A stretch of DNA of 64,000 nucleotides, taken from assembly GCA_043825875.1 (NCBI GenBank), contig JBDRRF010000031.1, positions 32,001-96,000 of the forward strand, written 5' to 3'. Source of the DNA: Pseudomonadota bacterium (GTDB lineage: Bacteria > Desulfobacterota > Desulfobacteria > Desulfobacterales > RPRI01). The position numbers and the translations under genes were made by a program. This document shows, piece by piece, positions 5,024-49,304 of the stretch (position 1 is the stretch's first letter; each line of letters begins with the position of its first letter). Below the pieces are notes generated by a model that saw only the letters and a program-made list of their open reading frames with translations, was not told the origin of the DNA and searched no databases.

Positions 5024-5100
5024 GGGCCGTTAGCTCAACTAGGCAGAGCACCTGACTCTTAATCAGTAGGTTATTGGTTCGATTCCAATACGGCCCACCA
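5024..5100 (+). tRNA. tRNA-Lys (anticodon CTT)
   Basis: GGGCCGT/ACGGCCC acceptor stem, TAGCTCA D arm, anticodon loop CT-CTT-AA, GGTTCGATTCC T arm, encoded CCA. Confidence 0.96.
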
Positions 5101-9739: not shown

Positions 9740-11056
9740 ATGTCAAAAAAACTTTTTATAAGCAGTATGCTTGCTTTGTTGATGATGTTTGTTCATCAAA
9801 GTAGTTGGGGCGAAGGCACAGGTTTACCTAAAGCTCCGAATTGGTCTTTCGGGGCGGAAATCCCTATCTTTAAGGAATTGGGGGTTACCTACAAAGGCCC
9901 GGCTAACGGTCCTAACCCGGCGATAGAAAATGCGAAGATCATAAATTCATGGGGCTACAAGGCCAAACCTATAGAGGAAATAAAGGATTTATTGCCGGAA
10001 GAATTCTATGAAGTTCTTAAAAATCCCAAAAAGTGGGGTGATTTCAGGATCAATGAAATCGCCGATATCCCCATTCCCACCAAAGGCACTCTGTATGAAA
10101 AATACTTGGCATTGACGGAAAAATATAAGGGTACATGTACATTGGATGCTAGGGGACAGTTGCAAAACTACGTTGGTGGCCGCCCCTTTCCCGGTGCCGA
10201 TCCTGAAAAAGATGTCATGAAATTGATGTGGAATTGGGAAAAGACGTATTATCGCGATGATATGCCAGCCGGGTTTTTGGCATCCAATATTGACGCATCA
10301 GGATTTACGCGAAATGCCTTTGCTGAAAAGTTGGTGATGCGTTTTGATACCAGGCTGGAAGCCGATCCAAACCCCCTTTACAAACCCAATCCCAAAGGTA
10401 TCGATAATATCCTAGCTTATGGTTATTCCGCCCCATACAATGTCGCCGGTATGATCCAGCTCACTTACCGGTATTATGATCCTGACAAGGAAGATGATAC
10501 ATGGATGTATATTCCGGCCATGCGAAGGGTGCGACGGATGTCAACGGCCCAAAGACAGGACCGGATGCCTGCCGGCATGAACTTCATCTACGATACCAAC
10601 GAAGGTTTCCAGGGAAAGCTGGCGCGCTGGCATTGGAAATACTTGGGGAAAAAGGTTATGCTTTCTCCTGCCAATGGTACGACCCAGCTTCAGATAGATC
10701 TGAAAGGTCATATGACAGGGGTGGATAACCGCTACTACCGCACAACCATGTATATAGTTGAAGGTACGCCGGAAAAGGCTATTACCGTTAGTAAAATCAA
10801 GCTGTATATTGATTCCGAACGCTTACTGATTCCTTATGCCGTCAACTACGATGTCAAGGGGAGACCCTGGTTTTTTCAATATTACGGCTATTCCCCCGAT
10901 GGCAAATGGATTCCCTGTCCTTACAACATGTTCTCAATCGACTTACAAAGAACTTACAGCACCCGGGCACTTCTTACTTCAACTGATTTTAATTTGGGTA
11001 TGAAACCGGAAGATTTCAGTATGGAAGTACTGAAGCGAAAATATCAGCAACGTTAA
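9740..11056 (+). CDS. DUF1329-family periplasmic protein (LolA-like lipoprotein-sorting fold)
   Basis: Signal peptide; NYVGGRPFP...LMWN; WMYIPAMRRVRR motif. Confidence 0.85.
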   Translation: MSKKLFISSMLALLMMFVHQSSWGEGTGLPKAPNWSFGAEIPIFKELGVTYKGPANGPNPAIENAKIINSWGYKAKPIEEIKDLLPEEFYEVLKNPKKWGDFRINEIADIPIPTKGTLYEKYLALTEKYKGTCTLDARGQLQNYVGGRPFPGADPEKDVMKLMWNWEKTYYRDDMPAGFLASNIDASGFTRNAFAEKLVMRFDTRLEADPNPLYKPNPKGIDNILAYGYSAPYNVAGMIQLTYRYYDPDKEDDTWMYIPAMRRVRRMSTAQRQDRMPAGMNFIYDTNEGFQGKLARWHWKYLGKKVMLSPANGTTQLQIDLKGHMTGVDNRYYRTTMYIVEGTPEKAITVSKIKLYIDSERLLIPYAVNYDVKGRPWFFQYYGYSPDGKWIPCPYNMFSIDLQRTYSTRALLTSTDFNLGMKPEDFSMEVLKRKYQQR

Positions 11057-11064
11057 TAAAATTC

Positions 11065-11099
11065 GGGGCAAATCCGGGGAAATTCCGCAGATTTGCTCC
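11065..11099 (+). terminator. Stem-loop after DUF1329 gene (terminator or mRNA stabiliser)
   Basis: GGGGCAAATC...GATTTGCTCC stem; no strong U-tract. Confidence 0.45.
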
Positions 11100-11134
11100 A
11101 CAAAGCTAATCGCGAAATTTAAAACCATATCATG

Positions 11135-11276
11135 GAGCCAGTTTCAAAACGCCCCATTTTGGCCGATCTCTGCGTTGAGCTCAAATTTCAATCCTCGAAA
11201 TACTAAATGTATTCCTGTGGGTGAAATTTTCTCCCGCCTTGAGCTTGACCAAACTGAAACGTTTTGAAAGTGGCTC
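11135..11276 (+). mobile_element. 142-bp MITE, family A, copy 1 (TSD CATG)
   Basis: TIRs GAGCCAGTTTCAAAACG / CGTTTTGAAAGTGGCTC; CATG at 11131-11134 and 11277-11280. Confidence 0.92.
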
Positions 11277-11303
11277 CATGTTATAAGAATTATTCAATAT
11301 ATC

Positions 11304-11435
11304 GAGGCAATTGCATAACGTTTTGTCATGCCCGAATGTTTTTGTCGGGCATCCATGATTTCAGTCAGTTACAAACTGGATTCCCACCCAGAAACGTTGC
11401 GGGAATGACAGAATAGGAAGTTTTGCAATTGGCTC
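11304..11435. mobile_element. 132-bp MITE, family B, with REP-like core (TSD TATC)
   Basis: TIRs GAGGCAATTGCATAAC / GTTTTGCAATTGGCTC; TATC at 11300-11303 and 11436-11439; internal GTCATGCCCGAA..TCGGGCATCC and GGATTCCC..CGGGAATGAC. Confidence 0.8.
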
Positions 11436-11464
11436 TATCTATCTCTTATTAATGGGAGGAACAG

Positions 11465-12523
11465 GTGGATAGTCCAAAGAAGTTCAAAGCAGTTAAGGTT
11501 GTAATCGTCGCCATATGCGCGATATTTATTTGTTTTATTACGGCAACAGGCGTATTCCCCGTAAATAATAAAAACGGAGCCCCGGAAGCCGTACCCTTCA
11601 ATCAGAGACTTTATCTGTATAATTTCTATGGACTATCAGCAGTAGTCGGAGGTCATATATGGGCGGCAGGCGCTTTTGGAACTATAATTTACTCCGGGGA
11701 TGGCGGGGAGACATTTCACAGGCAAGCATCCGGAATAAAATCGGAAATTTTTGATATAACTTTTCTTGATAGCGATAACGGCTATGCAGTTGGCCGTTTC
11801 GGGGTGATTCTTAATACAGTTGACGGAGGACATACGTGGACCCGTCAAGAAAGTGGTGTTACCAACACTCTTAGCAGCATTTGTTTTATAAACACAACTA
11901 CAGGTTGGATTGCGGGCGGATTTAACACTATATTGCATACCAAAGACGGCGGTAAAACCTGGGAGAAGATGGGGGAAAAGGTGGACAGGATGCTAAACCG
12001 CATATTTTTTGCCGATGCAAATCATGGTTGGGCAGTTGGAGAGTTCGGAACGATTTTAAAAACTACAGATGGCGGAACCAATTGGACCGAAACTAAAAAT
12101 CCTGAAGGGAAAAATCTTTTCGGTCTGTATTTTAATGATGCAACAAATGGATGGGCTGTTGGAATGGATGGTTGCATCATTACCACAAAAGATGGCGGAA
12201 CCAATTGGGAGATCACAAAAACGCCGGCAAATGAAACTCTCTATGGGATAACTATGAACGGCAAGAAGGGTTGTGCTGTTGGAATAAAAGGGATTTACTT
12301 CATCACGGAAGATGGAGGAGAAACCTGGGACATATCTCCTTATGATATCGGTGTGAGATCATGGCTGGGAGCAATAAAGTTTATTGATGAACAAAATGGT
12401 TTTGTATGCGGCGGTGGCGGAACAATCAAATTAACAAAAGACGGCGGTAAGACCTGGAATAGCCCGAAAGCCCTGTATCAGGATGAAGGTGTCTGCAATT
12501 TACCGGATAGGAAAAACACATAA
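11465..12523 (+). CDS. YCF48/BNR-repeat beta-propeller protein
   Basis: Repeated GWAVG..G.I..T.DGG.TW motifs; N-terminal hydrophobic anchor. Confidence 0.9.
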   Translation: MDSPKKFKAVKVVIVAICAIFICFITATGVFPVNNKNGAPEAVPFNQRLYLYNFYGLSAVVGGHIWAAGAFGTIIYSGDGGETFHRQASGIKSEIFDITFLDSDNGYAVGRFGVILNTVDGGHTWTRQESGVTNTLSSICFINTTTGWIAGGFNTILHTKDGGKTWEKMGEKVDRMLNRIFFADANHGWAVGEFGTILKTTDGGTNWTETKNPEGKNLFGLYFNDATNGWAVGMDGCIITTKDGGTNWEITKTPANETLYGITMNGKKGCAVGIKGIYFITEDGGETWDISPYDIGVRSWLGAIKFIDEQNGFVCGGGGTIKLTKDGGKTWNSPKALYQDEGVCNLPDRKNT

Positions 12524-17864: not shown

Positions 17865-18006
17865 GAGCCAGTTTCAAAACGCCCCATTTTGGCCGATCTC
17901 TGCGTTGGATGAAAATTATAATCCTCATAATCCTCAATGTATTCCTGCGGTTAAAATTTTCTCCCGCTTTGAGCTTGATCAAACTGAAACGTTTTGAAAG
18001 TGGCTC
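17865..18006 (+). mobile_element. 142-bp MITE, family A, copy 2 (TSD CCTT)
   Basis: Same TIRs; CCTT at 17861-17864 and 18007-18010. Confidence 0.92.
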
Positions 18007-18666: not shown

Positions 18667-19016
18667 ACTACCTCCGATTTTTCACAAAGATTAATATAGA
18701 TATATTTTACACAACAACTGAACGTGGGGAAAATAGACTAAATTTGTTTTGCATAAAGCATGTTAAAAACTATATGTCAATATAAAGAGAACGGCACTTT
18801 CTCCGGTGGCTAAGCTATGGAGTTAAATAAAAGATGGCTCAGAAATAAGAAGTTAAGGAATCAATGCTTCCCTTTTATGACTATTTTTAATATCGACAGT
18901 TCCGTTTTTTAAAATCCGATAATATCTTCTTCTGTTTTCTAACACTGGCTTAACCAAAGGTCCGGTTTTTTATAGCATAGCCATTTTTATTTTACTACCT
19001 TGGCAAATTTATTGCT

Positions 19017-19598
19017 CTACACGTTTAATTTTTTCAGCAAAAAAGCCATATTTCGGCCAAGCACTTTCATGGTCCCAAGTCCCCTCTCATCTTTCTCAAC
19101 ATCTCCTTTATCATTACCCAGGGCCATGTTGAAATAGTTTGCTCCCACAATAAACATTTCAAGGCATAAGAAGAAAGAATCCATCATCATTAATGCCTGG
19201 GTCGTTCCACTTACAGTGCCTACGCTGACACTAGCACCAGCTTTATGCCTTAACAATCCGGGATTTGCATATGCTACCAGGCCTGCTCTGTCAATAAACG
19301 CCTTCATTTCTGTTGTAACATTGCTAAAATAGGTAGGAGAGCCCAATATTATTCCATCAGCTTTGATCATCTTTTCAATGCATTCGTTAATGAAATCATC
19401 AATTGACAAACATTTGTACTCATTCTCTTTCTGTTCAAAACACTTATAACAAGCTATGCATCCTTTGATATCCTTTCCGGCCAGATTGACTACCTCTGTT
19501 TCGATTCCTTCTTTTTCCAACTCCTCGAATACTGTTTTTATCAATATTGATGTATTACCGTTTTTTCTTGGACTGCCATTAAATGCAACAACCTTCAT
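19017..19598 (-). CDS. Iron-sulfur flavoprotein / flavodoxin-like (NADPH-dependent FMN reductase family), copy 1
   Basis: NGSPRKNGNT; CIACYKC...C; LGSPTYF; MKAFIDR; GGAGG RBS before ATG 19598. Confidence 0.9.
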   Translation of the reverse strand: MKVVAFNGSPRKNGNTSILIKTVFEELEKEGIETEVVNLAGKDIKGCIACYKCFEQKENEYKCLSIDDFINECIEKMIKADGIILGSPTYFSNVTTEMKAFIDRAGLVAYANPGLLRHKAGASVSVGTVSGTTQALMMMDSFFLCLEMFIVGANYFNMALGNDKGDVEKDERGLGTMKVLGRNMAFLLKKLNV

Positions 19599-19622
19599 TT
19601 TAACCTCCATTTTTGATTTCAG

Positions 19623-19764
19623 GAGCCACTTTCAAAACGTTTTAGTTTGGTCAAGGTCAAGGCGGGTTAAAATTTTAACCGCAGGAATACATGTAGTATT
19701 TCGAGGATTAAAATTTTATCCCAACGCAGAGATCGGCCAAAATGGGACGTTTTGAAACTGGCTC
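19623..19764 (-). mobile_element. 142-bp MITE, family A, copy 3 (TSD TCAG)
   Basis: Reverse orientation; TCAG at 19619-19622 and 19765-19768. Confidence 0.92.
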
Positions 19765-25155: not shown

Positions 25156-25297
25156 GAGCCAGTTTCAAAACGTCCCATTTTGGCCGATCTCTGCGTTGGG
25201 CTCAAATTTCAATCCTCGAAATACTAAATGTATTCCTGTGGTTGAAATTTTCTCCCGCCTTGAGCTTGACCAAACTGAAACGTTTTGAAAGTGGCTC
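25156..25297 (+). mobile_element. 142-bp MITE, family A, copy 4 (TSD AAGA)
   Basis: Same TIRs; AAGA at 25152-25155 and 25298-25301; element end supplies part of the neighbour's stop codon. Confidence 0.92.
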
Positions 25298-26066: not shown

Positions 26067-26098
26067 ATTGAAATCCTATTTTTTACAAGTTATTCATT

Positions 26099-26674
26099 CT
26101 ATCCGTTTAATTTTTTAAGAAGTAAAGCCATGTTCTGACCAAGCACTTTCATGATCTGTAATCCCCATGCATCTTTCTCAACATCTCCTTTTTCCATGCC
26201 CAGAGCCATATTAGGGTAATTTGATCCCACAATAAACATTTCATGGGATAAAAACAAAGTGTTCATCATCATCAATGCTTGAGTTGCTCCGGTTCTATTG
26301 GCTACAGATACGCTTGCACCTACCTTATGCCTCAATATTCCGGCATTTGCAAATGCTACCATTCCGGCTCTGTCAATCAATGCTTTCATTTCTGTTGAGA
26401 CATTGCAAAAATAGGTGGGAGAACCCAATAGAATACCATCGGCCTTGATCATCTTTTTAATGCATACATTAATAAAATCATCAATTGCCACACATTTGAA
26501 GTTTTTCTTTTCAAGGCACTTGAAACAAGCTACGCATCCTTTGATATCCTTTCCGGCCAGTTGTACTATTTCTGTTTCAATTCCTTCATTTTCGATTTCC
26601 TCTAATACTGTTTTAATCAGGATTGACGTATTACCCTTTTTTCTGGGACTACCGTTAAATGCAACAACCTTCAT
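26099..26674 (-). CDS. Iron-sulfur flavoprotein / flavodoxin-like, copy 2
   Basis: NGSPRKKGNT; CVACFKC...C; LGSPTYF; close paralogue of 19017-19598. Confidence 0.9.
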   Translation of the reverse strand: MKVVAFNGSPRKKGNTSILIKTVLEEIENEGIETEIVQLAGKDIKGCVACFKCLEKKNFKCVAIDDFINVCIKKMIKADGILLGSPTYFCNVSTEMKALIDRAGMVAFANAGILRHKVGASVSVANRTGATQALMMMNTLFLSHEMFIVGSNYPNMALGMEKGDVEKDAWGLQIMKVLGQNMALLLKKLNG

Positions 26675-26750
26675 TTTAACCTCCATTTTTGATTGCCGAT
26701 TTTGAGAGTGATTCATTTGAAAGTATATCAATCACCCTATCCCGCAACGA

Positions 26751-30947: not shown

Positions 30948-32868
30948 TTTTCTCTACAGGTGTTAGAACTTTACCAGACACGTGCTCATACATTTGGAGG
31001 ATATATTTTGGTAGCTTACACTTTAATTCTTCTGTATCCCTCGGTTTGTTGTTTTTTTTGTCCCAGTACTTATATTCTAGTATTCTTGCTAATTGATATG
31101 CCGTTTCTGATTTGGATTTACCTCCGGTCAGAGGTTTATAGATTCTTGCAGAAATTTCCGCATTTGTTCCTGTATTAATTTCTTCAAACGCGGTTTTTGT
31201 GCCAATAGCCTGATGCATTTCTTCTTTTAGACCACAGTGAGCGATGTCGTATTCAAGAGTCCAACTTGGTGAAACAAAAGTTTTAACATTTTGTCCATCA
31301 TTCTCTTTCTTTTTATTTATATACACATCAAGCTTCTTTTCCTCTATTGAACCATCATAAAATGATTCAAACGATGTTTTATTTTTATCTGTTTTCTTAA
31401 TATATTTAATATCACTTTTTTCACAATCTTCTTCAAAAGCAACAATATCCGGCCTTAAATCTCGGTCGGCCACACAAGCAACCATTATAGGCACTTGGCC
31501 ATCCTTATCTGGGTGCTCACGCTGTAAAATTCGCGAGAATCTAAAAAGCCCTGTATGTCCAACATTCACAATTGATATACCATTCTTTTCTAATGGACAA
31601 TCAAGCAATTTTGCGATTACCGGAAAAAGTATGTTTTCCGCGTCACCTTCAACGATGATTACACCTCTTGCAAAAAATAAATTAGCCTTCGTTGCGTCCA
31701 AGAACTTTTCGAGGAAATGGTAATCATCTTTATCCAGTCTTGTTTTTCCCTTACGCATATCAAAAACTTTGTTGTCTGCAAGTAAAAGCATGCTATCCAG
31801 CGGTACCTTTGAAGCTAGTATGGGACTATGGGTAGTAAGAATTGTTTTCACACCATTTTGAGATTTCAAGAATTCCAATAGTTGCAGTTGCATCTGTGGA
31901 TGAAGATGGGCTTCCGGCTCCTCAATAAGCAACAATGGTAAATTCTCACCTTTTTCTTGCTGTATTAAAAGCATCTCTGTTGCCATATACATCAGGTTAT
32001 TATAGCCAAGTCCATGAGCAGTAAAAACATCATTTTCACCTTCGGAAAGATTCAGGTTGAGACGTTCAAGTATTCGTTTTAAGAAAAGGTATTTTTGTGC
32101 GTCGTTAAGATCCTTACTAGACTTAACATCAGCCATCTTTATTTTAGTAGAAAGGTTGTCTTTTTCAAACCGAAGTTTTTGAAAATAATTATCATTGATA
32201 GTCTTCTCGGTATCGGCAATGACCTCATTTTTTTCAATGTTTTGATTAGCCTCAACCATGATGTCAATTAGTTTCTCTTTAGAGTCTTGTATCTTTTTAT
32301 GCCCAGCAAGAATCTGTGACAGGCGAGAACCGTGCCCTGAACTCATTTCTAATGCGGCATCACGAAGTGGTTTAAGGTAAGTAGTTCGTAAAAATGCACG
32401 GATTTCACCTTCAATGGAGTTACCCGTGCCATTTACACCACTCTTAATTGTTCTATCGATAAACCTTATTCCACGCATTTTTCGTTGAGTGATCTGAGCT
32501 AATAACGTAACATATAATATGGGTTTTCCCTCTTCCGTACTTAAATGCTCAACAAAAGGTGCACAGGTTTCAATAGCATTTTCATTCTCAGAAAATTTAA
32601 AGCAAGCCTCTATTCTCATACAGGTTACACCAACATGAAAATCATCCTCTGTAATCCATGTTCTCTCTTGTGAATTTGTATCAAGAAGATAACGAATCGC
32701 ATCTATGACAGCAGTTTTTCCAGAATCATTTTCTCCTACTAAAACATTTAAACCAGGTTGGAATTCTATCTTTAATCCAAAATTTTCATTGGTTATCTCC
32801 TTCTCTCCCTTCTTAGGACATAGCCCATATTTTCTAAAATTCCATAGTTTTAAATTATGGAGATACAT
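30937..32868 (-). CDS. gajA: OLD-family ATP-dependent endonuclease, ABC ATPase + TOPRIM (Gabija GajA-like)
   Basis: GENDSGKT, LKPLRDA, GLGYNNL, IEEPEAHLHP, TTHSP, VEGDAE, DRD, TLEYD. Confidence 0.85.
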   Translation of the reverse strand: MYLHNLKLWNFRKYGLCPKKGEKEITNENFGLKIEFQPGLNVLVGENDSGKTAVIDAIRYLLDTNSQERTWITEDDFHVGVTCMRIEACFKFSENENAIETCAPFVEHLSTEEGKPILYVTLLAQITQRKMRGIRFIDRTIKSGVNGTGNSIEGEIRAFLRTTYLKPLRDAALEMSSGHGSRLSQILAGHKKIQDSKEKLIDIMVEANQNIEKNEVIADTEKTINDNYFQKLRFEKDNLSTKIKMADVKSSKDLNDAQKYLFLKRILERLNLNLSEGENDVFTAHGLGYNNLMYMATEMLLIQQEKGENLPLLLIEEPEAHLHPQMQLQLLEFLKSQNGVKTILTTHSPILASKVPLDSMLLLADNKVFDMRKGKTRLDKDDYHFLEKFLDATKANLFFARGVIIVEGDAENILFPVIAKLLDCPLEKNGISIVNVGHTGLFRFSRILQREHPDKDGQVPIMVACVADRDLRPDIVAFEEDCEKSDIKYIKKTDKNKTSFESFYDGSIEEKKLDVYINKKKENDGQNVKTFVSPSWTLEYDIAHCGLKEEMHQAIGTKTAFEEINTGTNAEISARIYKPLTGGKSKSETAYQLARILEYKYWDKKNNKPRDTEELKCKLPKYILQMYEHVSGKVLTPVEKNDA

Positions 32869-39698: not shown

Positions 39699-39840
39699 GA
39701 GCCAGTTTCAAAACGTCCCATTTTGGCCGATCTCTGCGTTGGTTGAAAATTTTAATCCTCGAAATACTCCATGTATTCCTGCGGTTAAAATTTTCACCCG
39801 CCTTGATCTTGACCAAACTGAAACGTTTTGAAAGTGGCTC
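39699..39840 (+). mobile_element. 142-bp MITE, family A, copy 5 (TSD TAAT)
   Basis: TAAT at 39695-39698 (includes gspF stop) and 39841-39844. Confidence 0.92.
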
Positions 39841-42701: not shown

Positions 42702-42843
42702 GAGCCAGTTTCAAAACGCCCCATTTTGGCCGATCTCTGCGTTGGGCTCAAATTTCAATCCTCGAAATACTCGATGTATTCCTGTGGTTGAAATTTTCGC
42801 CCGCCTTGAGCTTGACCAAACTGAAACGTTTTGAAAGTGGCTC
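42702..42843 (+). mobile_element. 142-bp MITE, family A, copy 6 (TSD TCAT)
   Basis: TCAT at 42698-42701 and 42844-42847. Confidence 0.92.
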
Positions 42844-49162: not shown

Positions 49163-49304
49163 GAGCCACTTTCAAAACGTTTCAGTTTGGTCAAGGTCAA
49201 GGCGGGTGATAATTTTAACCGCAGGAATACATGGAGTATTTCGAGGATTAAAATTTTCACCCAACGCAGAGATCGGCCAAAATGGGACGTTTTGAAACTG
49301 GCTC
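49163..49304 (-). mobile_element. 142-bp MITE, family A, copy 7 (TSD ATTA)
   Basis: Reverse orientation; ATTA at 49159-49162 and 49305-49308. Confidence 0.92.

Follow-up and report, generated by a model that had tools for sequence, protein, structure and literature searches.

Many bacterial transposable elements of the miniature inverted-repeat type (MITEs) are complete hairpins, and the locus described here raises the question of why this should be so. It lies in a window (i.e., the whole stretch of DNA that was analysed, 64,000 nt) from a Pseudomonadota bacterium placed by GTDB in the Desulfobacterales, corresponding to positions 32,001 to 96,000 of contig 31 (JBDRRF010000031.1) of assembly GCA_043825875.1. 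The assembly comprises 4.77 Mb in 118 contigs and has a G+C content of 39%. The element in question, MITE copy 1, occupies positions 11135-11276 of the window and belongs to a family with hundreds of copies in the genome. In the reading put forward here, which is held with moderate confidence, the family has IS5-type ends, and its hairpin is kept by selection on the single-stranded fold of the minus strand in those lineages that go on transposing.

The element is a MITE, i.e., a non-autonomous DNA transposon, and has been active recently; its mobility follows from an excess of 4-bp target site duplications (TSDs), the high copy number and an empty site in a congener. A repeat search of the window returned five direct copies and two reverse ones, and a hidden Markov model (HMM) built from genome copies recovered seven full copies, spaced 1.8-14.5 kb apart and each (7/7) flanked by a perfect 4-bp direct repeat (Table 1). 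Copy 1 is bounded exactly by GAGCC...GGCTC, and the terminal inverted repeats of the family measure 15-17 nt. Genome-wide, blastn gave 331 matches in 288 merged places, and nhmmer gave 304 non-overlapping matches, 248 of them full length. The copies are dispersed and are present on most contigs. The set of own copies referred to below consists of the 187 full copies for which 15 nt of flanking sequence is available at both ends. A perfect 4-bp duplication was found for 123 of them, against 2.9 expected from shuffled flanks; 168 start with GAGCC and 168 end with GGCTC. The TSD has no fixed sequence. The bases around the target suggest a palindrome, with C at -5 and G at +5 in 80 copies each and A at -8 in 138. 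No transposase gene is present inside the element, which measures 142 bp, or 164-187 bp in its long forms. In a congener (G008) with flanks 95% identical, the position of copy 1, the one site examined, is an empty site with a single CATG (L130).

Table 1. Features of the MITE family in the window (positions are those of the window; 55:89 denotes paired element positions).
Feature	Position	Strand	Remarks
MITE copy 1	11135..11276	+	142 bp; a single long hairpin, imperfectly paired; C:G at 55:89 (window 11189/11223)
TSD CATG, left	11131..11134	.	flanks MITE copy 1
TSD CATG, right	11277..11280	.	flanks MITE copy 1
Left terminal inverted repeat GAGCCAGTTTCAAAACG	11135..11151	+	MITE copy 1
Right terminal inverted repeat CGTTTTGAAAGTGGCTC	11260..11276	+	MITE copy 1
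Apical module, element 58-86	11192..11220	+	asymmetric internal loop, stem, 5-nt loop
MITE copy 2	17865..18006	+	T:A at 55:89; TSD CCTT
MITE copy 3	19623..19764	-	T:A at 55:89; TSD CTGA
MITE copy 4	25156..25297	+	C:G at 55:89; TSD AAGA
MITE copy 5	39699..39840	+	T:A at 55:89; TSD TAAT
MITE copy 6	42702..42843	+	C:G at 55:89; GGGC/GCCC; TSD TCAT
MITE copy 7	49163..49304	-	T:A at 55:89; GGGTGA/TCACCC; TSD TAAT

Copy 1 is predicted to fold into a single hairpin on either strand, with -61.8 kcal/mol on the plus strand (z-score -8.9) and -70.4 kcal/mol on the minus strand (z-score -9.5); on each strand 0 of 200 shuffled sequences folded as well. The consensus of the genome copies folds with -53.5 kcal/mol (plus) and -63.2 kcal/mol (minus). 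The proposal of a first-pass annotation of this DNA that the whole element is one long hairpin was thus borne out, with z about -9 on both strands, and the interior stems that it had listed (TTTGG/CCAAA, AAATTTCAA/TTGAAATTT and AATAC/GTATT) are all present in the predicted fold. The apical module consists of a conserved asymmetric internal loop, a 7-bp stem (AATAC../..GTATT) and a hypervariable 5-nt loop at element positions 70-74. On the trees described below, tip-branch changes per column number 8.4 in this loop, 1.67 in the apical module and 2.5-2.8 in the arms; the stems, unlike the loop, are kept.

Paired positions change together, as was already visible within the window. At element positions 55:89, copies 1, 4 and 6 carry C:G (AAATTTCAATCC...GGTTGAAATT; GGGTG in copy 1) and copies 3, 5 and 7 carry T:A (AAATTTTAATCC...GGTTAAAATT), as reported earlier; copy 2, which had been left off that list, likewise has T:A. 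The next stem reads GGGC..GCCC in copy 6 and GGGTGA..TCACCC in copy 7, again as reported. The two subfamilies drawn from these differences are too simple a scheme: both states are real, but T:A occurs on several backgrounds, and mixed states exist among the 187 own copies (CG 129, TA 39, CA 10, TG 7, CT 1, AG 1). An earlier alignment of 154 copies gave CG 106, TA 36, TG 7, CA 3, AG 1 and CT 1, and in other genomes T:A is the commoner state (50/57). TG copies were considered as intermediates and rejected; five of the seven stand on a C:G-type background and so are fresh single changes, not stepping stones.

Events were counted rather than alignment cells, because cell counts inherit relatedness. 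FastTree trees were built on 142 columns, changes were placed by Fitch parsimony for each column, and changes at partner columns on the same branch were scored as co-changes. The 187 own copies gave 541 events. A cross-genome set of 73 unique full GAGCC/GAGAC copies, taken from 108 aligned sequences among the matches listed, gave 461 events; the other 35 rows were dropped as truncated, of other end types or with more than six gaps. For the own copies 17 co-changes were found, compared with 4.5 ± 2.0 when columns were re-paired (0 of 2000 re-pairings reached this number); a standard pair results from 11 of the 17, and five of these 11 sit on single tip branches. The cross-genome set contains 44 co-changes (6.8 ± 2.6 when re-paired), of which 34 end in a standard pair (2.6 ± 1.7 when re-paired), and neither number was reached in any of 3000 re-pairings. 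With partners slid by 1-3 columns, the same set gave 6-15 co-changes and 0-4 standard-pair ends. Several events are repeated and independent: 26:117 went from TA to CG three times, and 31:112 from AT to GC, 45:99 from GC to AT and 5:138 from CG to GC twice each. The pair 35:108 shows three types, U-A, C-G and A-U. Many double changes lie at columns 26-55, further in than the 15-nt match to a transposase-encoding element described below. Covariation is therefore significant after tree-based event counting in two nearly independent data sets; the first-pass annotation had named phylogenetic correction among the checks of its structural reading.

Pairs were also counted directly, in a gap-free alignment of the 57 of the 73 copies that have no insert, set in minus strand orientation. 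Pairing was found in 85.5% of 3591 cells. Both sides have changed in 26 of 63 pairs, compared with 14.9 ± 1.6 in shuffled and 7-14 in slid alignments; double-change cells number 150 (50 ± 5 in shuffles), and the covariation score is 0.172 (0.097 shuffled, 0.021-0.072 slid). None of 500 shuffles reached any of these measures. The covarying pairs fall in the outer helix (18) and the middle helix (8), with 0 of 7 in the apical part, where 26 columns are fixed by the search pattern. RNAalifold, run on the plus strand of a mixed 108-row MAFFT alignment, returned nine apical pairs only and no covariation; because it combined truncated copies with families whose arms are unrelated, that alignment was replaced by the 57-row one.

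The two strands are not equivalent. The earlier observation that C-A mismatches of one strand become G-U pairs on the other, so that folding is asymmetric, was confirmed. In the consensus of the genome copies, C faces A (or A faces C) at five plus strand pairs, 18:125, 19:124, 20:123, 29:114 and 64:80, all of which are G-U on the minus strand; G-T oppositions on the plus strand number two. Changes from a Watson-Crick to a wobble pair number 81 for the minus strand and 32 for the plus strand in the cross-genome set (p 4.5e-6), and 97 and 60 among the own copies (p 0.004). Restriction to columns with a Watson-Crick consensus, which balances base composition, gave 91 G>A and T>C versus 58 C>T and A>G events across genomes (p 0.0085) and 104 versus 71 in the own copies (p 0.015). 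Of 108 aligned relatives, 105 fold more stably as minus strand RNA (19/19, 61/61, 10/12, 12/13 and 3/3 by end type), including the types with unrelated outer arms (10/12 and 3/3). In the own copies it is more stable in 181/187 with RNA parameters and in 151/187 with DNA parameters, the mean gap between strands falling from 8.3 kcal/mol with the former to 1.5 kcal/mol with the latter. As RNA energies give a large asymmetry and DNA energies only a small one, we lean towards RNA, and away from single-stranded DNA, as the folded form. The orientation of the MITE compared with GC skew showed at most a slight tendency over the three rising cut-offs that were tried, with 117/207 (p 0.07), 103/177 (p 0.035) and 90/150 (p 0.018), and it matches the local gene-strand majority in 100/207. 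A replication-linked mutation bias does not explain the direction of the asymmetry, because the plus strand is, if anything, slightly more often the G-rich one, which would favour C>T on that strand and not G>A.

Changes that break a minus strand pair are concentrated on the tips of the tree. Among the own copies 160 such changes lie on tip and 35 on internal branches, as against 127 and 59 for changes by which a pair is kept or made (odds ratio 2.1, p 0.002) and 67 and 43 for unpaired columns (odds ratio 2.9, p 7e-5). Together with the variable loop and the random orientation to genes (see below), the excess of breaks on tips indicates that inserted copies decay freely and that the lineages which leave descendants keep the fold. 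These data fit a fold required in the element's own cycle more readily than a role of every inserted copy as a host RNA. The structural selection proposed in the first-pass annotation can be kept in this restricted form: compensations and an asymmetry of the single-strand type speak for it, but individual inserted copies look unconstrained, and tips break freely.

A candidate for the mobilising element is found in the ends. Elsewhere the majority end type of the family is GAGACCTTTGCAAAACG, and this type recurs at two loci with transposase genes, L124 in the same genome and L136 in another genus. The latter is a 1323-bp insertion sequence with an intact frame of 375 aa and a GAGACCTTTGCAAAACG-type repeat at both ends. 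Compared with a real majority-type MITE copy (L033), it matches at the ends only, over 15 and 13 nt at 100%, with no further match below E 0.07; between the two ends of the insertion sequence itself agreement extends over 13 nt only, and it has no 4-bp duplication at that site (GTCC vs TGCC). At L124 (739-1863; G000:C110:35071-36200) a frameshifted IS5-type transposase gene stands behind a GAGACCTTTGCATAACT end, with pieces in different frames that match DUF772 (E 6e-23) and DDE_Tnp_1 (E 3.3e-11). The terminal repeat there has two differences in 17 nt from the majority end type; a matching right end was not found. DUF772 with DDE_Tnp_1, GA/GG ends and a 4-bp duplication characterise the IS5 group of the IS5 family by the criteria of ISfinder, and the MITE has both the 4-bp duplication and the GA/GG ends. 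With IS5-group insertion sequences it thus shares the duplication and the start of the ends, those of the L136 element being identical over 13-15 nt to the majority-type MITE; unlike them it has no transposase gene, and its interior is unrelated. Since the ends match an IS5-type element and the interior does not, the ends appear to be borrowed, and the other ~110 nt not to derive from an insertion sequence. Eight DDE_Tnp_1 loci of the same genome were rejected as partners, as their ends differ. One of the eight is L121 (660-2409; G000:C79:142686-144435), an intact 1750-bp IS1182-like element with ends GAGACTGTGTCATAAT; it encodes a 483-aa DDE_Tnp_1 protein and is flanked by the 3-bp repeat TTC.

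The mechanism that would join these observations is as follows. The MITE would be moved in trans by an IS5-type transposase, as its ends suggest, and its ~110-nt interior of other origin would form one long hairpin together with the terminal repeats. Natural selection would act on the single-stranded fold of the minus strand in lineages still transposing, so that pair-breaking changes would mark dead-end copies, and changes that keep or restore a pair, including G-U on the minus strand, would be passed on. Selection, and not templated repair, seems to be the main cause of the covariation, and RNA seems to be the folded molecule.

Several points weigh against this interpretation. The contrast between tip and internal branches is weaker across genomes (89:23 vs 139:62, p 0.06). 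The trees are rough and were built on the tested columns too, and the retrieval pattern of the cross-genome set fixes 26 apical columns. No autonomous element with exact GAGCCAG.. ends was found in the assembly: none of 50 orphan terminal-repeat sites adjoins a transposase, and a paired-end search to 3.5 kb returned only short elements or two neighbouring copies. DDE transposition is not known to need a single-stranded intermediate of the whole element. An RNA of the whole minus strand hairpin requires transcription from outside the element, as no internal promoter that would give it is evident; with random orientation, read-through RNA would be of the plus strand half the time, yet G-U pairs are tolerated on the minus strand only. 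No RNA sequencing runs covering window positions 9740-12523 were found. Finally, a block change at columns 46-48 and the five double changes on single tip branches look templated and not stepwise.

This last point leads to the rival that survives best, which we regard as possible but somewhat unlikely as the whole explanation: without selection, one arm would serve as the template on which the other is altered to match it, either through intrastrand template switching, the alternative that the first-pass annotation had itself raised, or through mismatch repair acting on a hairpin or cruciform that forms transiently while the DNA is replicated or transposed. The covariation would then be a by-product, and the fold would have no function. 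At columns 46-48 CTC became TGA, the exact complement of the right arm (TGA/TCA in 13 of the 187 own copies, CTC/TCT in 91, CTC/TCG in 41), and the tip branches with the five compensatory doubles carry about two changes each. Doubles of the transversion type without a stable intermediate are also present (5:138 from CG to GC twice, 10:133 from GC to TA twice, 35:108 from TA to AT). Unbiased correction should nevertheless erase mismatches, yet the C-A oppositions at 18:125, 19:124 and 29:114 and the internal loops persist across families and genomes, and on the minus strand these three positions are U-G, C-G or U-A, being unpaired in only 4, 2 and 0 of 57 copies. Templating further predicts no strand asymmetry, which was seen in both data sets, and does not predict the depletion of pair-breaking changes, relative to changes in unpaired columns, on internal branches. 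Selection and templated repair may well act together.

A more far-reaching interpretation is unlikely, namely that the interior of ~95-110 nt is a mobile structured RNA module made from the minus strand, which at least three unrelated sets of ends have acquired and which acts in the life cycle of the element. The same interior of ~95 nt was found between different outer arms, the alignment rows showing GAGCC/GAGAC, TAGTGCC.. and TTTCGGAG.. end types. Under this interpretation the interior would be a cargo under selection and not filler, with the fold serving, e.g., as a transposition cofactor or regulator or as a host shield; the module would be spread patchily through the phylum, and the sequence-conserved apical internal loop would be part of the fold.

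Copies of the MITE with 78-99% identity occur in 30 of 41 related genomes, its own among them, and in 16/16 genomes of the same genus; at the level of the order, 14 of the 25 genera that were sampled carry it. A search with just the 86-nt interior gave matches in 12 of 151 genomes drawn from the phylum, again including its own. A pattern scan of named genome records returned at least 107 stretches, nearly all from metagenome-assembled genomes. Among the matches listed, nearly all carriers have the taxon label Desulfobacterales, Desulfobacteraceae or 'Deltaproteobacteria'; a single match comes from Desulfobacterium sp. N47. Two listed matches (L019 and L043) are contigs of ~3 kb in archaeal bins (Iainarchaeum, Methanosarcinales), for which mis-binning is more likely than transfer.

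Variants of the family were seen as well. The ~95-nt interior also occurs with the very different outer arms TAGTGCCTGAACGAAAAC.. and TTTCGGAGTCTCGC.. (rows L012, L014, L022, L048, L053, L068, L087, L091, L102, L105 and L109, and rows L028, L075 and L110); MITEs usually show the opposite of an interior moved between sets of ends. In the relatives L030, L050, L056, L084, L102, L113 and L116, the element contains small hairpins rich in G+C, such as CCCGCC..GGCGGG, at a number of fixed positions; small REP-like units appear to insert into it. In 31 of the 187 own copies, the long forms, a conserved insert of 22-23 nt (CGCACGAAGTGAAGCTTTAGCGCT) replaces CA, the two bases at element positions 55-56. 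Examples are C110:5129-5292, C79:262474-262637 and C31:12710-12895, and some copies of ~187 bp have a double insert. The insert is kept in copies that have otherwise diverged strongly, and also in other genomes, in which its sequence is often TGGCACG.... A sigma-54 promoter in the 22-nt insert was rejected on inspection by eye, because the GC expected at -12 is shifted by one base and the form in this genome is CGCACG.

A third alternative is that every inserted copy gives the host a structured RNA, such as an RNase III site or a non-coding RNA that affects neighbouring genes, along the lines of the first-pass annotation; we consider this quite improbable. Precedents are Correia transcripts cut by RNase III (PMC10969869) and the transcription of bcr1 (PMC3184786), and a good enough duplex of more than 20 bp is present in either orientation. 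Copies sit in intergenic DNA, with only 22 of 187 overlapping a called open reading frame (ORF) by more than 20 nt, and some are close behind an upstream stop (28 of 110 copies in tandem contexts lie within 7 nt of the stop codon of the upstream ORF). Divergent intergenic regions are favoured as sites (46/181 copies vs 410/3871 genome-wide). Two metatranscriptome contig sets of one study contain 22 and 11 RNA contigs that match the MITE core only; none is 99% alike or covers unique flanks, and they derive from related family members. They are a weak hint, as DNA carry-over is possible and contigs of this kind do not reveal strand, ends or true transcription. The orientation to flanking genes in tandem contexts, however, is random (53 co-directional, 57 opposite, p 0.78; longest-ORF calls, 3989 ORFs, 86% of the genome), 160 of the 195 pair-breaking changes of the own copies lie on tips, as expected of decay in situ, and the absence of copy 1 from the same site in the congener means that the locus is not conserved. 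No Rfam match to the element was obtained: a gathering-threshold scan of the window matched only a tRNA at 5024-5097, and an E-value scan of 11100-11460 gave a best E of 1.4, with bit scores of 11-15 against gathering scores of 55-144.

A symmetry imposed on double-stranded DNA, with a transposase or host architectural protein binding both arms far past the terminal repeats, is just as improbable: part of the covariation does lie in the first 17 columns (GAGCC.. and GAGAC.. differ at 4:139, 6:137 and 10:133) and the apical module is kept in sequence and not in pairing alone, but the related insertion sequence shares 13-15 nt only, which argues against two-sided protein recognition as the cause of the interior covariation since the footprint need not reach columns 26-55, duplex binding gives no reason for the G-U/C-A asymmetry, and no IHF-type consensus was seen by eye in the core.

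Known systems of similar appearance were compared. Integron attC sites stand at the 3' ends of cassettes, in arrays with a spacing of ~0.5-1 kb, and carry R''/R' core sites. An attC identity was rejected, as the MITE is dispersed, has a TSD, is spaced at 1.8-14.5 kb and has no GTTRRRY/RYYYAAC pair at the base of the stem (by eye). A link to RAYT and REPINs was likewise rejected; the MITE has a TSD, and of 13 Y1_Tnp matches only two, each of them a fragment, are situated within 135 bp of a copy. In Correia elements the duplicated target is TA and an IHF site is present, unlike the MITE with its 4-bp TSD of no fixed sequence and no IHF-like motif seen. The Correia elements (NEMIS) of Neisseria are MITEs of 100-155 bp with a long-hairpin transcript; MITE transcripts form stable stem-loops, and RNase III cuts Correia-containing transcripts at the terminal repeats (PMC10969869). 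They served as the model for the RNase III idea. REPINs are described in PMC3116915 as palindromic doublets that form a hairpin in single-stranded DNA or RNA, with compensatory changes common and the hairpin as the replicative unit. They depend on RAYT tyrosine transposases, occur beside a RAYT gene and make no target duplication, whereas the MITE has one in 123/187 copies. The bcr1 repeats of the Bacillus cereus group measure ~150-155 bp, have 5-bp direct repeats, are transcribed and keep their fold by compensatory changes, according to PMC3184786. Compared by that description, bcr1 and the MITE are alike in dispersal, short direct repeats (5 bp in bcr1, 4 bp in the MITE) and a compensated fold of varying stability among copies; bcr1 is cruciform-like with two stem-loops and is transcribed, whereas the MITE is a single end-to-end hairpin with IS5-type ends in another phylum.

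No description of this MITE family was found in the literature listings that were searched. Compensatory changes in hairpin-forming MITEs have been recorded before (bcr1, REPINs), and the phenomenon is not new; the many independent compensations, the consistent asymmetry and the interior carried between sets of ends go somewhat beyond the usual description. The family provides unusually clean data on why many bacterial MITEs are complete hairpins. With hundreds of copies per genome, many carrier genomes within one order and outside it, an interior unrelated to the insertion sequence with the same ends, dozens of independent double changes, a consistent strand asymmetry and a contrast between spreading lineages and decaying copies, selection and templated repair can be tested directly against each other. 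For annotation, the MITE breaks assemblies (60 of the 331 matches touch a contig end) and is best masked ahead of any calling of intergenic RNA motifs in these genomes.

A second MITE, distinct from the 142-bp one, lies at 11304-11435, 27 bp downstream of copy 1. It measures 132 bp, has the TSD TATC, and its ends GAGGCAATTGCATAACG / AGTTTTGCAATTGGCTC are related to those of the 142-bp family. Its plus strand folds with -55 kcal/mol, and it is essentially single copy in the genome (one near-full blastn match, itself). Comparison of the congener (L130; G008:C10:1-2202) with window positions 11277-11310 indicates a hot spot of insertion: neither of the two window elements is present at its site in the congener, which has, however, a reverse-oriented copy of the 142-bp family 3 bp from the position that the 132-bp MITE occupies here. 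Adjoining MITE copies 3 and 4, at 19016-19618 and 26098-26694, there are two repeated stretches, one of ~300 nt (77% identity) and one of ~190 nt (87% identity), with 7.08 kb between the repeats; this is probably a duplicated gene segment.

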